From IMG/VR virus record IMGVR_UViG_3300020045_002642, positions 1 to 30,805 of that record: a stretch of DNA of 30,805 bases. The stretch is one strand, 5' to 3'. This stretch comes from a virus (taxonomy: Duplodnaviria > Caudoviricetes). Below are positions 4,636-30,155 of this stretch, one piece after another. Below the pieces are notes generated by a model. That model did not search any database. It saw only the letters and a list, made by a program, of their open reading frames with translations, and was not told the DNA's origin. How positions within the stretch are numbered: position 1 is the first letter of the stretch; every line of letters starts with the position of its first letter. Position numbers and translations under genes: made by a program.

Positions 4636-5169
4636 TTACTTCTTTTTAGAGGATTTGGAAACTGTGAAAATTGTCTTTTTTCTAGCTTTCAACTTCTCTG
4701 TATATTCATCTTCTTGGTTAGCTTGAGCTTTATCTACTCTTTTTAATGTAGCTGCTTGTGTTTGTATCTTAGCGTTTCTACGTTTCTGTTCCGCTGACTC
4801 TGGCGCTGCTTTTACTTGAGCCTCTTCATCTAATACAATGTAATAAATAGAACTCTCGTGTGTCATTAAATAAGGTTTACCATTGATAATAGACTCTAGG
4901 TTAGCCATTGAATTGTAAATCACTAATAATCCTACTTTAAGATAATCAGAACATTCAGGTCCTAATGCTATGATTCTAGCAGTGAACTCTTGAGTACTAA
5001 CTGCATCAGGAATAATTAATCCCGTTTCAGACTTTCTTTCTCCACCTTTAACGCGCTGTAATAAAACTGATTTACCTAATGGAATAACGTTTACATTACT
5101 TTTAACTAAATCCTCTGGCACTTTGATTGCTTGGATTCTTTTTGCTAATTGCTGATTAATGTTTTCCAT
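4636..5169 (-). CDS. groES: GroES/Cpn10-like co-chaperonin with C-terminal extension
   Basis: PLGKSVLLQR, mobile-loop-like KSETGLIIPD, ARIIALGP, LKVGLLVIY, INGKPYLMTHESSI. Confidence 0.8.
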   Translation of the reverse strand: MENINQQLAKRIQAIKVPEDLVKSNVNVIPLGKSVLLQRVKGGERKSETGLIIPDAVSTQEFTARIIALGPECSDYLKVGLLVIYNSMANLESIINGKPYLMTHESSIYYIVLDEEAQVKAAPESAEQKRRNAKIQTQAATLKRVDKAQANQEDEYTEKLKARKKTIFTVSKSSKKK

Positions 5170-5329
5170 AGGTAGTTGGTTGTGTGGTTGTTAATTTAAC
5201 TTTAGGGAATTTGTTTTCTGTCATCCACGCCTTGAGGCAGTTGATTTTGACTGTTGCTTTACTTGTTTTTGCCATTTGTTTTTGTTTTGTGGTTATAAAA
5301 TTAAACTATTTGTATTAATTATCAAAATA

Positions 5330-5605
5330 TTATTCTGAGAATTTGTTTAAAAATTCAATTACTCTCTTAGCTTCTAAATCCCACATTATGTAAAGTTCAC
5401 TTTCTTTGTGTCTATCTCTGATTTCTATGACTTTGTTTTTCCAATCGCGGACTTGTTGTAAATCACTTTGTTTAAGATATTCTACTTGTTTAGTAGTAGA
5501 GAATGAATTAGGTTCTTTGACGTAAATAAGATTAGGATTAGTGTCAATAGGTTTATTCTCTAAATGATAATCATCATCTCCTGGTTTTGACGGTGTGTAT
5601 CTCAT
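5330..5605 (-). CDS. Hypothetical protein
   Basis: 91 aa ORF just downstream of a promoter motif. Confidence 0.6.
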   Translation of the reverse strand: MRYTPSKPGDDDYHLENKPIDTNPNLIYVKEPNSFSTTKQVEYLKQSDLQQVRDWKNKVIEIRDRHKESELYIMWDLEAKRVIEFLNKFSE

Positions 5606-5626
5606 GTTATTTGTTTTTGATTTAAA

Positions 5627-5656
5627 GTTTATACGACACTTAATGTAAAAGGTTAC
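5627..5656 (-). promoter_or_regulatory. Repeated phage promoter GTAACC-N15-CGTATAAA
   Basis: One of 10 copies, co-oriented with the downstream gene. Confidence 0.65.
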
Positions 5657-6320: not shown

Positions 6321-6631
6321 TATCCAAATATTAATTTAAGTTTTTTAAGAGCCTCTGCTTCATCAAATTTAGGAGAAGTAACAAGTAATTGTATATTAAT
6401 ACCATATCTTACTGCTAACCATATAATCTGAGCTTCACTTAGTGTATTCTTTTGAGGCTTATCACTAAAGTATCTTGATAACTGCTCTGGAGCTATCTTG
6501 AATCGTCTTTCTGAGGCATCTAACACAACCGCCGAGTTCTTAAATCCAAATCCTACGTTGGACGGATATAACTCTTTCAGCCTATCGTGGATATGCTTCT
6601 TTAAGACTTTACTATCCTTTACTAATGACAT
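6320..6631 (-). CDS. Hypothetical protein, possible Xre-like HTH
   Basis: IAPEQLSRYFS...LSEAQIIWLAVRYGI pattern. Confidence 0.5.
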   Translation of the reverse strand: MSLVKDSKVLKKHIHDRLKELYPSNVGFGFKNSAVVLDASERRFKIAPEQLSRYFSDKPQKNTLSEAQIIWLAVRYGINIQLLVTSPKFDEAEALKKLKLIFG

Positions 6632-6875
6632 CTAAGTATTCATCTATATTGTTAATAGCTATATCTAATTGTTTCTCTAGTAAATCATTTGTAGCTTTAG
6701 GGAAGGTAAGTCTTCCGATTTCTACTTTAGTTTTTCTATCAACAAATGTTTGGAGGTTATGAAATTCTCCATCGGCGGTCTTACCTATTGGCTCTTTGAA
6801 AGTATCAATAGTAACAATGATGTTTCTTCCGTCTTTTGTTTTTGCTTCTTTTGAAATTGATGCTGTTGGTTTCAT
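6612..6875 (-). CDS. Hypothetical protein
   Basis: 87 aa ORF in operon. Confidence 0.6.
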   Translation of the reverse strand: MKPTASISKEAKTKDGRNIIVTIDTFKEPIGKTADGEFHNLQTFVDRKTKVEIGRLTFPKATNDLLEKQLDIAINNIDEYLDVISKG

Positions 6876-7359: not shown

Positions 7360-7437
7360 TGGTACACATACGGGACTCGAACCCGTGACCACCATGCGCT
7401 AAAAACCAGGTGCTCTACCAACTGAGCTAATGTGTAC
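7360..7437 (-). tRNA. tRNA-Lys(TTT)-like gene with two bulged bases in the anticodon stem
   Basis: D arm GCTC-AGTTGGTA-GAGC, T arm ACGGG-TTCGAGT-CCCGT, acceptor GTACACAT/ATGTGTAC, loop TT-TTT-AG. Confidence 0.7.
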
Positions 7438-7450
7438 TGTTAATTGTTAA

Positions 7451-8215
7451 TTAGAACGCTTCATCGTCATCATCTGCTGGATTGAAAACAATATCAGATT
7501 CTTTCTCTTCCATTTTAACTTCTGATTTAGGAGTTACTTTAGGTTTAGAGTTTAATCCATTATCTTGATTTTCATCAATAACTTCAGTAGGTGTCGCCGA
7601 TGCGTTTTTAGAAAAGTAAGCAGTTAAATACTCTTGTAAAGTTTTATCTAACTCAATAGCCTCTGCATTAGCTTTTTCAGATACTTTTACAGCAGTGTAA
7701 ACAGGCTCGTAATAAGTAGTTTTACCTTTCTTCTTCTCTACTGTATCTTTAACTGATACCGCAATTTCATTTACGTTATTATCTTTGCAGAACTCGATGA
7801 AAGCAGATAATCCAGATCCTCCTAATTGGATATTATTTAAAACTAATCCATCTCCTTCTTTCTGTCCAATGTAAACCGATTGGTAATACTTTAATCCTTT
7901 AGTTCCTAATTTCTCTTTAGCTGCCTCGTATAATCCTGAGAATACTATTCCTTTCTTATTACGAACTGTAATAGTATCAGTTTTAGTACTTCTTACTTCA
8001 TTTGAGTAATAACCCATTTGTAGGCTATCGTCAAATCCTTTGCAGGTACTTAATGTATCTAATACTAGAAAGTTGAATGGCATCTTCATAAATACCTTTT
8101 CGCCTTTTTCTCCTTTATCCTTGTCGAAATAAAAGAATTGTCCTTTGTCTCCCGACCATTCGTAAAAACGTTTTGATGGGTTAACTAATTTTTCATGTGG
8201 ATTACTTCTTGACAT
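7451..8215 (-). CDS. Putative ssDNA-binding protein
   Basis: 254 aa in the replication block, acidic tail ending DDDDEAF. Confidence 0.5.
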   Translation of the reverse strand: MSRSNPHEKLVNPSKRFYEWSGDKGQFFYFDKDKGEKGEKVFMKMPFNFLVLDTLSTCKGFDDSLQMGYYSNEVRSTKTDTITVRNKKGIVFSGLYEAAKEKLGTKGLKYYQSVYIGQKEGDGLVLNNIQLGGSGLSAFIEFCKDNNVNEIAVSVKDTVEKKKGKTTYYEPVYTAVKVSEKANAEAIELDKTLQEYLTAYFSKNASATPTEVIDENQDNGLNSKPKVTPKSEVKMEEKESDIVFNPADDDDEAF

Positions 8216-11038: not shown

Positions 11039-12398
11039 TGCTTCCTCCTGTTATTATATCATTTGAATCTGGAGTATAATCTTTAAAAGCCGAATATTTA
11101 CCTTCAAATCTTACATAAACCTTTCCTGTGCTTCCGTATCTGTTTTTAGCAACATTTATCTCGCATAATCCGCGCAAGTCCATTCCTGATTTAGGATCTT
11201 TAGCATCAGCATCGTAGTAATCGGCTCTGTAAAGTAACCAAATTTGTACCGCGTTTGCCTCAATAGCTCCTGAGTCTTTCAAGTCAGACATATAAGGGTA
11301 TGGAGGACTTCTTTTTTCTACTTCTCTTGATAATTGAGATAATTCAATCATGCAGCAGTTTTCGGTTTTAGAAGTCTCTAGTAACCCATTACATCTATCT
11401 CCAACTTGTTCTTCTTTAGATTTTCCAACCGTCTCTTCTTTTGTATTCTTCATTAACTGTAAATAGTCAATCATTACAGTCATAAGAGTACTTAATGGAA
11501 CGCCTAATTGTTTACGAACTTTTCTTATTTTAGTTCTAGCGTATTGCCATGTAATAGCAGGTGTATCATCAATAACTAAGTTTCTTTTAATTCTACTTCT
11601 AAGATTCTTTATTCTAATCATATCTTCATCAGATACATTTCCGCTTCTAATCTGCCAGCTATTAATCTCTAGGCAGTTGGCCCAAATGTTTTTCATTAGC
11701 TGTTTCGCAGGCATTTCTAAAGAAAATATAATCAAAGGCTCTCCTTTATCAACAGCAATATGTTTAGCTATATTAATAATTAAGCTAGTTTTTCCCATTC
11801 CTGGTCTCGCTCCAACAACAATTACCTCTTGCTTTGCCCCTGAAGTTAATTTATTTAAGTCTTTTATTCCATAAGAGTGACCTATAACTTCCGATTTACT
11901 ATTTTGGGCTTCTAACAACTCTTCAAATGCTTCATCAAAAACATCCTCAATATTCCTTTCTACAGATAGGTTATTCTTAATACTCTCAATATCCGACACT
12001 ATAGACTTTAAATCATCAATAGAACTATTTACATCACTAATCTCATTACTAAGCTCTGAATGAACGCTATGAAGCACGGGAAGCATTTTGCGCTTAGTGT
12101 ATTCATCAAAAATATCATTTACATATTCTGATACGTTTTTAGCAATAGCATAATTAGGCTCTGACACCTCAAGTCCAATTTCCTTTTTATTGCAACCTGC
12201 TTTAATAAGCATATTAGAAAGTAAATAAACATCAGACTTTTTATTTTGCCCGTGGTTATGCTTAATTATTTTGTACTTAACCTTGTTAAAGTTTGTGGAC
12301 CACAACTCATCAAATATTAAATGCTGGCATCCTTCAAATAAATTCTCATTATCCGCGTACAAATTGAGTACAGCGCGTTCTTTTTCTTTTAATGTCAT
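11022..12398 (-). CDS. dnaB: Replicative DNA helicase
   Basis: GARPGMGKT, FSLEM, IDYLQLM, LSQLSR, SDLKDSGAIE, KNRYG. Confidence 0.95.
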   Translation of the reverse strand: MTLKEKERAVLNLYADNENLFEGCQHLIFDELWSTNFNKVKYKIIKHNHGQNKKSDVYLLSNMLIKAGCNKKEIGLEVSEPNYAIAKNVSEYVNDIFDEYTKRKMLPVLHSVHSELSNEISDVNSSIDDLKSIVSDIESIKNNLSVERNIEDVFDEAFEELLEAQNSKSEVIGHSYGIKDLNKLTSGAKQEVIVVGARPGMGKTSLIINIAKHIAVDKGEPLIIFSLEMPAKQLMKNIWANCLEINSWQIRSGNVSDEDMIRIKNLRSRIKRNLVIDDTPAITWQYARTKIRKVRKQLGVPLSTLMTVMIDYLQLMKNTKEETVGKSKEEQVGDRCNGLLETSKTENCCMIELSQLSREVEKRSPPYPYMSDLKDSGAIEANAVQIWLLYRADYYDADAKDPKSGMDLRGLCEINVAKNRYGSTGKVYVRFEGKYSAFKDYTPDSNDIITGGSNGEEF

Positions 12399-12946
12399 TT
12401 TTGGTAGTATTTAAAAGTTGTATTATTAAATCTAGTTCCAGCTAATTTTCTCTTAAATCCGCTATATTCTATTCCGTTTTCTTTAGCGGCTATTTTTATA
12501 GAATCATAAATCTTACCATTTGATGTATCAATTACTTTCATAGAACACCTTTCTATGGTTCTGCTTATCAATAAATCTATTTGATGAGGATATATTTTGT
12601 TTAACCCTGTATCAAAAGCGTGTTGACAATTTTCTTGATTGGTCGCCCATGCTAAATTAGAAACATGGTTATTTAACTTATTACCATCTAAGTGATTTAG
12701 TTGAGGTTTATTTTCAGGATTAGGAATGAATGCCAATCCAACTAGTCTATGAACTTTTTTAGTGTGTCCCTTTTTGTCTTTAACCAAGGATACTAAATAA
12801 TATTTCGTTGTGCCTATTCCTGGTTTTAAATTTCTTTCTCCAAATCTACCTGCGAATTTTAGTGATTTTACATTTCCGAAAGTAGATACAGCATACCTGC
12901 CTTCAAATCCTTCAATGTCTTTCCAAATTTCTTCTGTTTGTTCCAT
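12395..12946 (-). CDS. NUMOD4-HNH homing endonuclease
   Basis: EIWKDIEGFEGRYAVSTFGNVKS, VHRLVG, NHLDGNKLNNHVSNLAW. Confidence 0.9.
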   Translation of the reverse strand: MEQTEEIWKDIEGFEGRYAVSTFGNVKSLKFAGRFGERNLKPGIGTTKYYLVSLVKDKKGHTKKVHRLVGLAFIPNPENKPQLNHLDGNKLNNHVSNLAWATNQENCQHAFDTGLNKIYPHQIDLLISRTIERCSMKVIDTSNGKIYDSIKIAAKENGIEYSGFKRKLAGTRFNNTTFKYYQK

Positions 12947-13447: not shown

Positions 13448-13465
13448 TAATTCAAGTTTGAGTTA
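13448..13465. promoter_or_regulatory. 18-bp palindrome TAATTCAAGTTTGAGTTA
   Basis: Fills the gap between the integrase stop and the initiator ATG. Confidence 0.55.
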
Positions 13466-13583
13466 TAATTTGATGTTTGATAGAGGGCTTTGTATTTTAC
13501 TTATGTGATTATGACTGATGTGGAGATAGATATTAGTGGTTTTTACACTACTATGACCAGCGAGTCTTTGGATAAGATTAATA
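13463..13583 (-). pseudogene. Tyrosine recombinase C-terminal fragment (box II His and catalytic Tyr)
   Basis: [21 protein letters not shown]...IQSPL. Confidence 0.85.
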
Positions 13584-14147
13584 CTTTTCATAAGAAAATA
13601 TAAAACCTCCGCATGTTTTTGCCCTATTCCCTCTACATACTTCACAAATTGAATTATAAATTAATCCAAGCTGTCTGCCAGCTTCTCTCGCACAAGGATA
13701 TTCTTTTATAAAATTTTTATTTAAATCGTATTGAAAAACAGGCTTACTTCTATTATGTTCAGAATTAAATTTACCACTAAAAGAACCTTTTTTTCCAAGC
13801 ACATAGTAAGCATGTTTATTGTTTTCTGAACTTGTACACCACTCTAAATTTTCAACTCTATTATCTGATTTTATACCGTTTATATGATTTACAGTAAGTT
13901 TATTTTCAGGATTAGGTATAAAAGCCATTGCGACTAACCTATGAACAAAAATATTTCCTTTGTTAAAACTCACATAAGGATAACCTTGTTTGCTTATAGT
14001 TGCAGTTTTTAATTTACCTTTTAATTTCATTTTGAAAGAAGTTCCACCTCTTTCACATAATTTTTCAGAATCAATAGTTTTAACATTTCCTTTATCAGAA
14101 ACTAGCAATTCTATGCCTCTATAATTAGACGTTTTCCATTTTTCCAT
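13578..14147 (-). CDS. HNH homing endonuclease with NUMOD1-like C-terminus, lying inside the integrase
   Basis: [43 protein letters not shown]; own TATATTTG promoter element at 14162-14169. Confidence 0.9.
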
Positions 14148-14568
14148 AATTGTTTTTTATACAAATATAATTAATTATATCAATACATACTAATATGTGA
14201 GTAATTACCTTATGCTTTGTGTTAACGCAAGCTTTAAACATAGATTGAACTTCATCTATAGACAGAACTATTGGCAACTTTTTATCCTTTTTACTAAATG
14301 GTATTTTATCTAACTTTAACGGCATTCCGACTGTGATTTCATAGAATGATTTTATTCCACATAACTTATGGTTTCTAGTGTTGATAGTATCAAAAGAACA
14401 AAGCCACTCTTTAATCTCTTGCGTTGAAATCCTAGAAGGCTCTTTAACATCCTTGAATTTATAAAGGAATGATTTTACAGAGGATTGATAATTTTCCTGA
14501 GTTTTCACGCTAGGATATTTTAACTTACTATCTGTACAATATCTATCAAGCCAAATTGGAATATTCAT
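14125..14568 (-). pseudogene. Integron-type tyrosine recombinase, N-terminal half
   Basis: SVKTQENY...FL SAM-like domain, KKLPIVLSIDEV, NTKHKVI; similarity stops near 14200; divergent from the cassette array. Confidence 0.8.
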
Positions 14569-14599
14569 TTTTAAAGTATTGATTTTATTAGTGATTAAA

Positions 14600-14626
14600 A
14601 AGGTTTCTTACATAGTATAGTTAGAA
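14600..14626 (+). other. attI-like site, crossover G/TT at 14620-14622
   Basis: GTTAGAA is complementary to TTCTAAC of the first attC; no hairpin upstream; about 50 bp from the integrase start. Confidence 0.65.
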
Positions 14627-14631
14627 AGAAA

Positions 14632-14778
14632 TGTTTTTGGGGTGTGAGAATCGAACTCACGGGCGGATGCCTCCTTTCTACAACCATTAACTTATTTCTA
14701 AGCCGAAGGGAATCGAACCCTTGATGTACCATACTTTCAGCTTGAATCGAACAAGCTCCCTCCAAAACCCCAAAAACA
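14632..14778 (-). ncRNA. Putative structured RNA with three T-loop hairpins, in cassette 1
   Basis: Three GTTCGATTC loops with perfect but different stems, one GAAA hairpin and a 12-bp closing stem. Confidence 0.6.
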
Positions 14779-14783
14779 CATTC

Positions 14784-14837
14784 TTCTAACATGGGCTATA
14801 AAACATTAAAACGATTTTATAGCCCTATCCGTTATGT
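14784..14837 (+). other. attC-like site 1 (54 bp)
   Basis: TAAC-AT-GGGCTATAAAA...TTTTATAGCCC-TATCC-GTTA. Confidence 0.75.
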
Positions 14838-14843
14838 GCAAGG

Positions 14844-15068
14844 CTACACCCGAATAGCATCGACCCTTCTTTCACTAAGTTGCTTCAATAAATTAATTAG
14901 TGTGCTTAATTCACCATCTTCAAAATAATATGTGTCACCTTTTCCGTTTTCAACCTTATATGAGTTTGATACGGTTTGAAAGCTTAAAACCATTTCGTGT
15001 TCAGGGCATCCTGATTGAACACAATCATCTGAACATCTATATTTTTCCTTTAAAACTACTGTTGCCAT
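14844..15068 (-). CDS. Cassette 2 hypothetical protein
   Basis: 74 aa ORF filling the cassette; CSDDC...CPEH. Confidence 0.7.
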   Translation of the reverse strand: MATVVLKEKYRCSDDCVQSGCPEHEMVLSFQTVSNSYKVENGKGDTYYFEDGELSTLINLLKQLSERRVDAIRV

Positions 15069-15109
15069 TTTGTTTTCAAATTAATTTTAGTACTGATAGA
15101 CCGCCCAGC

Positions 15110-15202
15110 ACATAACAGCGGTTTGGCAAAAGCTGCCATTGAAATTTGTGCAAATATTTAGCATCCGTTAGGCAGCCTTCGCCAAGCCGCAAAACGTTAT
15201 AG
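15110..15202 (+). other. attC-like site 2
   Basis: TAAC-A-GCGGTTTGGC-AAAA-GCTGCC...GGCAGC-CTTC-GCCAAGCCGC-AAAAC-GTTA. Confidence 0.85.
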
Positions 15203-15216
15203 GCAAATAAATTTTA

Positions 15217-15438
15217 CTACGCTATCCTGTAACCAACATATCCGCAGTTCTCTTTCATACAAGCCACATTTTTTTGTGGTGGGTTGCTTGTTAATGTCAT
15301 CATTGGCTGGCTGTCGTAAAGTTCCTCACCGCATTTAGGACAAGCAATACCATTTAGTTGTGGCTTGTTATAATCAAATGAATGAACTGCTCTTGCTGTT
15401 GAATTGTGTTCGTCTAATGTTTTTAATTTCTTGCTCAT
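15217..15438 (-). CDS. Cassette 3 zinc-ribbon protein
   Basis: CPKCG...CMKENCGY. Confidence 0.7.
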   Translation of the reverse strand: MSKKLKTLDEHNSTARAVHSFDYNKPQLNGIACPKCGEELYDSQPMMTLTSNPPQKNVACMKENCGYVGYRIA

Positions 15439-15458
15439 AATCCGTAAAATTTATCAGC

Positions 15459-15589
15459 CTATAACATACGCTATACAAAAGTGGGGCTGTGTGCCAAATC
15501 TGTACAGTTGTGCATCTAATTTGCTTTTTTGCGGTAAGAAAGGGTTGTGCATCTTAATCCCCACCTTCGTATAGCGTCAGCCGTTAGAA
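15459..15589 (+). other. attC-like site 3
   Basis: TAAC-AT-ACGCTATAC-AAAA-GTGGGG...CCCCAC-CTTC-GTATAGCGT-CAGCC-GTTA. Confidence 0.85.
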
Positions 15590-15595
15590 CCAATA

Positions 15596-15802
15596 CTAAG
15601 ACCGAAGTGCATCTAAGTCAAATCCCATTTCTTCTAACTTTGACCGAAGTGCAATTTCCCAACCTTCTTTTGGTCGTTCTAAAAAACGATATTCGCTATC
15701 GTAGATTAAGTCTTTCATTTCAGCTTCCTTAAAGCCACCGCTATGAACTGATGTAAAAACACAGTCAAAGCATTCGATTAATTGTTCTCTTGTTGGTTTC
15801 AT
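15596..15802 (-). CDS. Cassette 4 hypothetical protein
   Basis: 68 aa ORF filling the cassette. Confidence 0.7.
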   Translation of the reverse strand: MKPTREQLIECFDCVFTSVHSGGFKEAEMKDLIYDSEYRFLERPKEGWEIALRSKLEEMGFDLDALRS

Positions 15803-15815
15803 AATAAAGTACTGG

Positions 15816-15910
15816 TGCTAACAGCGTATATACAAGATACGCCTACAAGCATTTGTTTATAATTTGAAATTTCGTTAAGGTGTACCTCGTATATACACAA
15901 ACCGTTAGCC
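15816..15910 (+). other. attC-like site 4
   Basis: TAAC-AGC-GTATATAC-AAGA-TACGCCT...AGGTGTA-CCTC-GTATATAC-ACAAACC-GTTA. Confidence 0.8.
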
Positions 15911-16066
15911 GCTATCCGCTTTATTCAATCCATTATTATTGTAATTAGGAACTATATTTATCTCTATAGTTTTCACAACCTTAACTTCTCTTTTCTCACA
16001 AGGCTTTAAAGATTTAAAATATCCAAATAAAACTAATCCTATAAATATATACTTGATTGCTTTCAT
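15905..16066 (-). CDS. 53 aa protein with hydrophobic N-terminus (not in the ORF track)
   Basis: MKAIKYIFIGLVLFGYF...NKADSG; follows a promoter motif; stop lies in the last attC core. Confidence 0.55.
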   Translation of the reverse strand: MKAIKYIFIGLVLFGYFKSLKPCEKREVKVVKTIEINIVPNYNNNGLNKADSG

Positions 16067-23535: not shown

Positions 23536-23946
23536 ATGGGATTAACTAAAGAAGAGCAACGAGAAAAAATAAGATTAGAAAATGAATCCACAAGAGCCTA
23601 TGCTAGTTCTATCCGCAAAACTACTGAGAAAAAAGTAAATAAAATGAATTATGGATATAATGGCAAATTATCATTCAATATGGTTGGATGTTATTTTCTT
23701 TGGTATCAAAATAATATAGTTTATATAGGTGAAAGCACTTGCATTATGAGTAGATTAGTTCAGCATCAGAAGGAAGGTAAAAAAGTATTTGATAGATGGA
23801 CTTTTAAGCAAGTTAGCGGAAGCGATAAACAAAGGCTGTCGCACGAAAAGAAGTTAATAAAACATTATAAACCAAAGTATAATAAAACTCACAAAACACC
23901 CGTAAAAAGAAAGTCGAAATCAGTTTACTTAGTATTATCAAAATAA
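23536..23946 (+). CDS. GIY-YIG nuclease family protein
   Basis: GCYFL...VYIGES...SRLVQH...EKKLIKHYKPKYN. Confidence 0.8.
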   Translation: MGLTKEEQREKIRLENESTRAYASSIRKTTEKKVNKMNYGYNGKLSFNMVGCYFLWYQNNIVYIGESTCIMSRLVQHQKEGKKVFDRWTFKQVSGSDKQRLSHEKKLIKHYKPKYNKTHKTPVKRKSKSVYLVLSK

Positions 23947-24971: not shown

Positions 24972-25160
24972 ATGGAACAAAATAACGACATGGGAGCAAA
25001 TAAATCAATAAAAGTAATATTCAGGGCATTTGACCAAACTCAGGAATTAATCTTTCCTGCGGATCACAAACTAAGCGATGTGGCTAATTACCTTCGCAAC
25101 GTGTGTCACACTTATATTATCTTAGAAATGACCCCAACTAGTAAATTACCTAATATATGA
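24972..25160 (+). CDS. Small hypothetical protein, apparent HNH insertion target
   Basis: Its last 42 bp are duplicated at 25704-25745. Confidence 0.65.
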
Positions 25161-25729
25161 CAACAGAAGTATGGAAGCCAGTAAAAGATTACGAATCATT
25201 TTATGAAGTAAGTAATAAAGGATTTGTTAAATCTTTATCAAGATTTATAAATAATGGACAGGGAGGTGTAAGTCTTATTAAAGAAAGAATTATGAAAAAT
25301 CAAATAATAAAAAAATATTCATATATAAGACTGTCTAACAATATATGTTTTAAAAATAAAAAGGTTCACAGATTAGTCGCCGAATCTTTTATTCCAAATC
25401 CTGAAAATAAACCATGTGTCAATCATATTAATGGAATTAAAACTGACAACAGAGTTGAAAACTTAGAATGGTGTACTTATTCAGAAAACACGCAACATTC
25501 ATGGGATACTAAATTACTTGTTATGAGTGATTATAACAGAAGTAAAATAATAGAAAGAGCTTGTAAAAAAGTTATAAATATAAAGACTGGAGAAATACAT
25601 AATTCTATTAATGAAGCCGCTAATTCTATAGGATATAGAAATACTAGGTTATCTCAAATGCTGTTAGGTGTAAATCCTAATAAAACAGATTTTAGATATT
25701 TTAATCTTAGAGATGACTCCAACAAGTAA
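25157..25729 (+). CDS. NUMOD4-HNH homing endonuclease
   Basis: [42 protein letters not shown]. Confidence 0.9.
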
Positions 25730-28915: not shown

Positions 28916-29439
28916 TAGAAACAATAACCTTAAAAGAGGTTTATCCTAAACAGGAGTTGGCGGACCAGTCCACAAATAAAGCCTTCACTCGTCATTACTG
29001 TAATATATTCCTATACCTAGACATAACAGAATGTGCTTTATTTACATGGCTTGTAGGATATAGTGACCAAGTAAACGTATTTACATACTCTACTACACTA
29101 TTAGAACAGTTTGATAAAGCTTCTGATAGAGCTATGGAGATATATGGAGTAGATAAAGTGAAGTATAAAACTTCTAGGGACAACGCGCGGATGACATTCA
29201 TATCTTTAGTAGAGAAAGGACTATTAATAAGAATAAAAGGTAAGAATAGATTTATGATAAATCCTTATATGGTATATTCAAGTAATCCAAGAAAGTTCGC
29301 AAGAGCATCCAGACATAAGGAGTATTTAGATATTGTAGAATACAGTTCGGCGGATAAACTAGCAGAAGAATTAACAGAATATTGTAATGATATAGAGAAA
29401 ACATTTAAAGAATACGTAAGGAAATATGGAAACTGGTAA
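28888..29439 (+). CDS. Winged-helix protein, RepL-like
   Basis: SRDNARMTFISLVEKGLLIR...RFMINPYMVY. Confidence 0.55.
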   Translation: MAERGNTKLIETITLKEVYPKQELADQSTNKAFTRHYCNIFLYLDITECALFTWLVGYSDQVNVFTYSTTLLEQFDKASDRAMEIYGVDKVKYKTSRDNARMTFISLVEKGLLIRIKGKNRFMINPYMVYSSNPRKFARASRHKEYLDIVEYSSADKLAEELTEYCNDIEKTFKEYVRKYGNW

Positions 29440-29764
29440 TCGTAAGTCCAAAGTAATAAGATTAAAAGGAGAGGATGCTTTCATAAGACTCCTGGCATCT
29501 CAATTTGGCACAACGGCAGATATGGAAATAAATCTTATCAAAGTCCTTATTAAATTCGACTTGTTCACACCATTTTGCATGGAGAAGCATATCAGACGGC
29601 GGATACAGAAAGAGATGGGTGTGCCTTACACAACATTAGGAACAGCTATAACCCGACTAATAAAGTCAGGTATAATAGCAAGGAATGGAAAGAATGTATA
29701 TGTTAATGTTGCTTTTAGGGGATTGGAGGATATAGATTCAATAGTATTCAAAAAACCATTATAG
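29426..29764 (+). CDS. Winged-helix DNA-binding protein
   Basis: IQKEMGVPYTTLGTAITRLIKSGIIAR. Confidence 0.65.
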   Translation: METGNRKSKVIRLKGEDAFIRLLASQFGTTADMEINLIKVLIKFDLFTPFCMEKHIRRRIQKEMGVPYTTLGTAITRLIKSGIIARNGKNVYVNVAFRGLEDIDSIVFKKPL

Positions 29765-29777
29765 TTCCTCTTATAAA

Positions 29778-30155
29778 TTAATCTCTAGCAAGTCCTGAGT
29801 TGCGTTCCTCATATCGTTGCTCCCAATACTCGAATGCAGTATTTTCATAATGCACCTGGCACTTCCATTTAATATCTTCTATTTGTTCTGCTTTGATCCG
29901 AGCGGTGTCTTTTAAACTTCTCTCAAAACTATTGTCTTGTCCTATTGCTTCATCTAACCAATTAATATGGTTATATTTCTCACTTGCCTGGCTTATTAAC
30001 TGGATTCTTTGTCTATATAATTGCATAATCTTGTTAGCTTTCTCACTCGGCGCGGCTGTTCCTCGTTTTACTTCTGTAATATCATTACTAAGCATTTTTA
30101 ATACTGCTTTTAATGCTTCAATGTTTGCTTGGTCTCCTTTGCTTAATGGTTTCAT
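29778..30155 (-). CDS. Hypothetical protein
   Basis: 125 aa ORF convergent with the plus-strand block. Confidence 0.6.
   Translation of the reverse strand: MKPLSKGDQANIEALKAVLKMLSNDITEVKRGTAAPSEKANKIMQLYRQRIQLISQASEKYNHINWLDEAIGQDNSFERSLKDTARIKAEQIEDIKWKCQVHYENTAFEYWEQRYEERNSGLARD

Follow-up and report, generated by a model that had tools for sequence, protein, structure and literature searches.

Does a phage carry a platform of its own for capturing gene cassettes? The question is raised by IMGVR_UViG_3300020045_002642, a record classed as viral, whose full length of 30,805 nucleotides (nt) is the window analysed here. Between positions 13,463 and 16,066 it holds pieces of a tyrosine recombinase gene, an attI-like docking site and an array of four units closed by imperfect hairpins, which an initial annotation made from the letters of the sequence read as an integron owned by the phage. 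We suggest, at a probability of roughly 70%, that this is a phage-borne array, that among its relatives cassettes are gained and reordered at G/TT, likely via a short tyrosine recombinase acting on the folded bottom strand, and that in the window an HNH gene has replaced the catalytic core of the recombinase, the array here likely being frozen without an enzyme in trans. The family is likely a means by which phages shuffle genes in the absence of a protein segment thought to be essential in bacterial integrons. The window contains a relic, and what is of interest is the family, together with a probable RNA cassette.

The array and the remains of its recombinase

The locus is made up of the following features.

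14575..14626, plus strand: attI-like docking site, crossover G/TT at 14620/14621
14621..14831, minus strand: cassette 1, 211 nt, no open reading frame (ORF) of its own; attC-like site 14787-14834; candidate structured RNA at approximately 14620-14790
14832..15196, minus strand: cassette 2, 365 nt; ORF of 74 amino acids (aa), 15068-14844, on the bottom strand; attC-like site 15113-15199
15197..15583, minus strand: cassette 3, 387 nt; Cys-rich ORF of 73 aa, 15438-15217; attC-like site 15462-15586
15584..15904, minus strand: cassette 4, 321 nt; ORF of 68 aa, 15802-15596; attC-like site 15819-15907
15905..16066, minus strand: anchor gene closing the array, 53 aa; stop codon within the last GTTA core
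14203..14568, minus strand: N-terminal 122 codons of the recombinase (PF13495); the ORF continues to 14125
13463..13582, minus strand: C-terminal remnant of the recombinase, residues approximately 240-279, keeping the last His and the catalytic Tyr
13578..14169, minus strand: NUMOD4-HNH-NUMOD1 endonuclease (Pfam, PHROG), gene 14147-13578, 189 aa; TAnnTTTG box at 14169-14162

The attC-like sites are given as YAAC..GTTA spans. Every site starts with AACA and ends with CGTTA on the plus strand, and plus is therefore the top strand, the array reading away from the recombinase. In all four sites the YAAC/GTTR cores are inverted and the bottom strand can fold, and the tyrosine recombinase gene adjoins attI, as in integrons. 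The GTT at 14620 and the four core pairs of the initial annotation are in the sequence as written, and its four hairpin-closed units are real. The minus strands of sites 1 to 4 fold beyond their shuffles (z = -4.3, -3.1, -2.2 and -3.5; 0, 1, 6 and 0 of 200 shuffles each were equally good), and the plus strands give z = -4.9, -2.2, -1.6 and -1.4. Under a strict site scan the window gave five sites, whereas 20 first-order Markov sequences as long as the window gave 0-2 each (mean 0.2). Besides the four of the array, the scan picked up a weaker hairpin at 29631-29819 on the minus strand, distant from the array, that also has the +3 offset and may be due to chance.

A 65-aa ORF at 14792-14595 was rejected as a gene; it spans attI and has no matches. 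The plus-strand ORFs 14900-15115 and 15547-15732 have no matches and were also set aside, whereas the minus-strand ORF of cassette 2 is conserved, with nine of ten homologues full length at 64-95% identity.

The recombinase gene does start at 14568, as first annotated. The gene is not whole: only residues 1-122 and approximately 240-279 are left of an enzyme that has approximately 279 aa in intact relatives, for example at locus L001. Residues 1-122 are 93% identical to the homologue P0021 and 89% identical to the intact 279-aa gene of L001 over the shared part, and 35 of the 40 residues of the C-terminal remnant (88%) are identical to P0021 240-279. Residues of approximately 123-240 are absent, and the HNH gene, preceded by a TAnnTTTG box that we take to be the Bacteroidota -7 promoter element, stands in their place. 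Judged from what is left of its coding sequence, the local recombinase is dead. Because the HNH gene replaces the catalytic core, the array is likely frozen in the absence of an enzyme supplied in trans, and the suggestion that the phage carries its own capture platform does not hold for this copy, which cannot capture alone. None of 56 relatives of the HNH gene is flanked by integrase pieces, and a contig of sequencing run X1 that matches the C-terminal piece departs from the window beyond 13583. The lesion seems to be confined to this lineage.

The stretch could instead be a piece of bacterial chromosome, or the HNH gene could belong to a group I intron whose splicing yields a functional integrase; we consider either extremely unlikely. 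Among the 53 ORFs of the 30.8-kb record, scanned with Pfam and PHROG, no capsid, terminase or other structural gene was recognised, which would suit a chromosome and from which we take the record to be a fragment. Against a chromosome stand the matches to NinG, NinB, DnaB, a helicase, an exonuclease and YopX, found together with GroES and three HNH genes, and the classification of the record as viral; a chromosomal contig had been named in the initial annotation as a reason to abandon its proposal. A group I intron with a homing endonuclease was rejected: the joined remnants are still short of approximately 117 residues, splicing could not restore the enzyme because the catalytic Arg, Lys and H-x-x-R are gone, and there is no Rfam intron match at E<1.

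Cassettes and sites among relatives

Comparison of the locus across relatives, as proposed with the initial annotation, showed that cassettes vary exactly at the GTT boundaries; a fixed gene order was not seen. Loci L001 and L006 form opposite ends of a single 46.6-kb record (CheckV 100%). Their docking sites are nearly identical to that of the window up to GTTA and diverge beyond it (a family consensus was derived from 114 distinct attI sites). At one end the docking site is directly followed by a given cassette, and at the other end one extra cassette is placed between the two, bounded exactly at G/TT. The array of L006 is closed by a homologue of the 53-aa anchor gene of the window (52% identity), and its cargo is not shared with the window. 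A second row of three sites (5135-5219, 5560-5634 and 6617-6665) is found in L001, approximately 4-5 kb downstream of the intact integrase.

Eight loci, L219-L226, have an identical 831-nt integrase stretch and four different first cassettes. Shared cassettes are reordered between them, E-F-A-D-B in L223 versus B-G-D-A in L221, followed by a common end anchor. These loci are variants and not clones, because their downstream flanks are of two types. Relatives thus differ by both gain and reordering of cassettes. In 10 of 80 viral loci the contig ends less than 400 nt upstream of the integrase gene; for the downstream side the number is one.

Cassettes 1 and 4 of the window are found in other samples. 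A contig of run X6 begins matching at 14620, over cassette 1, and contigs of runs X1 and X3 match cassette 4 from 15581 and 15582, respectively, with other sequence beyond. Among the run contigs listed over the array there is no joint that skips a whole cassette, and the cassettes of the window have no full homologue among the family integrase loci. Searching with the array, blastn gave site-sized pieces in two uncultured records, and a plasmid search gave matches below 60% only. No sequencing run had more than 0.11 of the words of the window, and no RNA run was among the holders listed.

Site statistics were obtained from 182 partly redundant loci, the window among them, that have at least 45% identity and no less than 130 nt of upstream sequence; after removal of units longer than 1100 nt they gave 182 non-redundant cassettes. 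An attI motif is located just upstream of the integrase start codon in 146 of the 182 partly redundant loci. The left core equals the cassette's own right core at 6/6 positions in 130/182 cassettes and the next core in 4/182, and the own-core pattern first described for the window is thus family-wide. Based on this pattern, we suggest that an intact enzyme would excise cassettes as circles and insert them at attI. Cassettes might also be exchanged without a site-specific enzyme, by homologous or illegitimate recombination at hairpins of similar sequence, and relatives of the site sequences are indeed abundant in other samples, as seen by depth peaks over the four sites. The breakpoints, however, are at the G/TT base, and a left core equal to its own right core is unlike the product of a crossover within hairpins, which makes this explanation very unlikely.

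On the bottom strand, the 5' arm has +3 or +4 extra bases next to the core in 155/182 sites. When the 182 sites were folded under constraints, the predicted 3' arm was unpaired in at most 20% per position, and positions 6-9 of the 5' arm were unpaired in 75-89%. The extrahelical bases that define integron sites on the 3' arm of the bottom strand are not present in these predicted folds. The core-to-core spans vary from approximately 40 to 135 nt and have little sequence in common. Because the sites keep shape and not sequence, the enzyme probably recognises single-stranded DNA, acting on the folded bottom strand. The 3-4-nt bulge beside the core could mark the strand, replacing the extrahelical bases that are read by the I2 helix of the integron integrase IntI.

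The longest ORF is on the bottom strand, and so reversed, in 175/182 cassettes, on the top strand in three and absent in four; 60 of the 175 reversed ORFs start inside their own site. Genome loci below 45% identity gave cassettes in 10 of 56 cases, and 28 of 29 of these cassettes have the canonical orientation. The enzyme and the site type are common to bacteria and phages, and the reversal belongs to the phage branch. Reversal would place the cargo within the phage's own minus-strand operon, and the cargo may be expressed from this replication operon and not from a Pc promoter.

Bacterial arrays in which the short enzyme goes with a canonical gene orientation are found upstream of 7000 in L184, L165, L170, L178, L186 and L216, one 311-aa cassette being present twice in L178. 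In L189, L196, L209, L213, L182 and L195 the array is downstream of the short recombinase (downstream of 7560-7810) and codirectional with it, an inverted layout.

The short recombinase and other possible ways to move cassettes

The catalytic R, K, H-x-x-R, H and Y are invariant in 45 homologues of the short enzyme. In these the spacing from Lys to HxxRH is 64-70, versus 106 in 12 of the 13 IntI proteins measured, the other having been mis-parsed. The IntI-specific insertion with the I2 helix is absent and appears as a gap against 2A3V (Vibrio cholerae IntIA), which is the best sequence match in the PDB (E 5e-33). The enzyme scores 186 bits against TIGR02249, split over two stretches, where the cut-off is 265 bits. 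The Xer families are also all below cut-off, with scores and cut-offs of 189/220 (XerA), 173/330 (XerC) and 165/335 bits (XerD). The predicted fold, with a predicted local distance difference test (pLDDT) score of 84.6, is nearest to XerA (Z 22.4, root mean square deviation 12.6, 254 residues aligned) and VchIntIA (Z 20.6, 6.8 and 270, respectively). In a quick tree of 74 proteins, with three Xer-like proteins of genome G001 and no XerA in the outgroup, the short enzymes and IntI are separated from the Xer-like proteins by a branch with 96% support in the Shimodaira-Hasegawa-like approximate likelihood ratio test, and the phage set is on one side of a branch with 87%. The family comprises 2386 clusters at E<=1e-40 among 3464 candidates; among 50,697 cultured or annotated phage records there is one weak match at E<=1e-30.

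With integrons (IntI1/attI1/attC; 2A3V) the system shares a recombinase divergent from attI, growth of the array at G/TT, YAAC..GTTR hairpins, the own-core signature, a SAM_4 N-terminal domain and the SP-L tail. It differs in that the short enzyme lacks the insertion of approximately 40 residues and falls short of TIGR02249, that a 3-4-nt bulge replaces the extrahelical bases, that ORFs of the phage branch are reversed and that the local copy is broken. The canonical integron layout ascribed to the window at first has to be given up, as the ORFs run toward attI, the enzyme is without the IntI insertion and the sites are without the usual extrahelical bases. The system works like an integron but is outside the IntI family by its defining feature, and is thus not a classical integron.

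XerA, XerC and XerD have the length, the fold and the short Lys-to-HxxRH spacing in common with the short enzyme (189 bits for the XerA profile, NF040815). Unlike them, the short enzyme is below all Xer cut-offs, is tied to a variable array and groups with IntI and not with the Xer-like proteins of G001, in a quick tree without XerA. It could nevertheless recombine the cores as double-stranded DNA in the manner of Xer, the hairpins being mainly RNA elements for processing, termination or translation start ahead of the reversed genes. The missing I2 insertion and a fold match to XerA ahead of VchIntIA fit this, as do the phage hairpins, which precede the ORF on its coding strand and often contain its start. 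Spans of such variable length and with so little shared sequence would be a poor double-stranded target, however, and bacterial arrays, in which the hairpin follows the gene, retain its bulged form. We regard Xer-like recombination as unlikely.

That phages carry integrons is already known, as Qi et al. 2023 (PMC9892861; cited, like the papers below, for part of its text) report integrons and clusters of attC sites lacking an integrase (CALINs) in 21 phages, and carriage as such is not new. In common with the present system these have attC-like sites and methyltransferase cassettes in lytic phages. The difference is that the paper reports true IntI or no integrase; the text compared describes neither the short phage enzyme nor reversed ORFs, while the figures and a Dryad annotation file, outside that text, may bear on orientation. 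According to the same paper, six phage sites were assayed with IntI1; five of them recombined, P12002L_attC2 among these, and P12002L_attC1 was the sole failure.

We found that P12002L_attC1 (30008-30056) has the bulged shape of the family and stands ahead of a methyltransferase gene in reversed orientation. The terminal sequence of P12002L_attC2, GTTAGGCAC, is the own core of attC1 in reverse complement, and the site carries the ATTGATTTTA motif of the family; because of this end and this motif it would seem to read better as an attI. The cultured lytic phage P12002L (L462) has attI-like and bulged sites at 29176-30056, 38035-38090, 38879-38936 and 40761-40949, the bulged ones standing ahead of reversed methyltransferase and Mom-like genes.

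Bacteroidota are likely the host of the phage, as judged by the named matches of the recombinase family, which are mostly from this phylum; a few bins are labelled otherwise. Of 151 genomes sampled from the phylum, 50 have full IntI genes, and a host enzyme could therefore act in trans. IntI of the host might move the cassettes, with the short recombinase an accessory or an unrelated neighbour. The sites recombined by IntI1 agree with this, and arrays persist where the enzyme is dead or absent, as in the window, G153 (a stop inside the match) and P12002L. Arguing the other way, the attI motif is at a fixed distance from the short gene, whose catalytic residues are invariant, the bulged P12002L_attC1 is the site that failed with IntI1 (PMC9892861), and the array-bearing Flagellimonas genome G001 has no IntI above the cut-off. 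We find movement by host IntI quite unlikely.

Some observations weigh against the short enzyme as the agent of cassette movement on folded strands, the IntI genes of the host phylum among them. P12002L has such cassettes and no family integrase in its genome, and intact-integrase loci such as L014, L079 and L250 have no site within the 6-7 kb of flank. The site statistics come from a purpose-made finder that demands YAAC/GTTR and a stem and drops units above 1100 nt. We infer every step of the chemistry.

A search of the literature, to which subscription journals were mostly closed, found no paper on a phage system with a short enzyme and reversed cassettes. In the parts of the papers cited, few complete integrons are reported in Bacteroidetes/Chlorobi (Neron 2022, PMC9024848), Bacteroidota are among the integron hosts (Ghaly 2021, PMC8618304), and a Riemerella paper of 2026 (PMC13148043) describes a gene with an attC-like stem-loop that was taken up independently of homology. 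Escudero 2020 (PMC7790495) ties I2 to the extrahelical bases, holds its acquisition to be the step that enabled integrases to recombine folded single strands, and remarks on the lack of intermediates. A large natural family without I2, hairpins without extrahelical bases and visible shuffling make this idea directly testable. Searches with IntI profiles would miss platforms with the short enzyme. We lean slightly towards a wider view in which Bacteroidota and their phages run a second, overlooked class of integron, based on a sister of IntI without I2 that acts on bulged single-strand hairpins. Bacteria would hold canonical cassettes and phages a separate, reversed pool shuffling counter-defence and even RNA genes; the enzyme would supply the intermediate that is missing between Xer and IntI, and a free-standing RNA gene would have turned cassette.

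Cargo, cassette 1 and neighbouring genes

Of the 175 cassette ORFs, 150 were scanned and gave 35 Pfam matches: 23 DNA methyltransferases (one below cut-off), Mom, Tad3, Lar and nine others. The Tad3 match, to an inhibitor of Thoeris (E 2.6e-20), is a cassette ORF at 4085-4696 of L031. Counter-defence cargo may be selected for, and short-enzyme arrays would offer phages the counter-defence equivalent of the bacterial store of defence cassettes. The three cassette ORFs of the window have no match above curated cut-off in Pfam or PHROG; the nearest Atlas cluster to that of cassette 3 is 94% viral and without a common Pfam family.

To the family the window adds an end state with a dead enzyme and a probable RNA cassette without an ORF. 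From its predicted structure, cassette 1 is a candidate conserved RNA gene with three T-loops. Its bottom strand folds with z -3.3 and has three GUUCGAUUC loops and a closing stem that runs into both cores. The cassette is also found in another phage array (82% over 206 nt), adjoining a family integrase whose match is interrupted by a stop. Four further relatives are free-standing, two of them directly behind a TAnnTTTG box, and these bear on the origin of cassettes. In the six related sequences, with a structure derived from their own consensus, 92/92 cells of four hairpins pair, and 9/16 pairs are changed on both sides. Cassette 1 shares three hairpins with a TPsiC-like GUUCGAUUC loop with transfer RNA (tRNA), transfer-messenger RNA (tmRNA) and other T-loop RNAs. 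It differs from tRNA, tmRNA and the known Rfam families in that neither the cassette nor its five relatives gave an ARAGORN call or an Rfam match at gathering score. The triple T-loop pattern was found at 65 loci, many of them simple repeats, and good alignments to cassette 1 were limited to L295 and L331. A literature search for such a T-loop RNA gave no match by title or start of abstract. A contig of run X18 over cassette 1 was rejected as evidence of expression; the run is labelled as probably DNA.

Other phages (L291, L293, L297, L307, L315, L316 and L317) have an element with three GGTTCGATTCC hairpins near 1501 (128 in L317). Several are directly behind a tRNA-like sequence. The window itself encodes a tRNA at 7361-7436 (minus strand) whose anticodon, TTA, would pair with the stop codon UAA. 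Within its 31 kb there are also three NUMOD4-HNH genes (12395-12946, 13578-14147 and 25157-25729) and one GIY-YIG gene (23536-23946). The two NUMOD4-HNH genes near the array are 60% identical, over 47 residues only.

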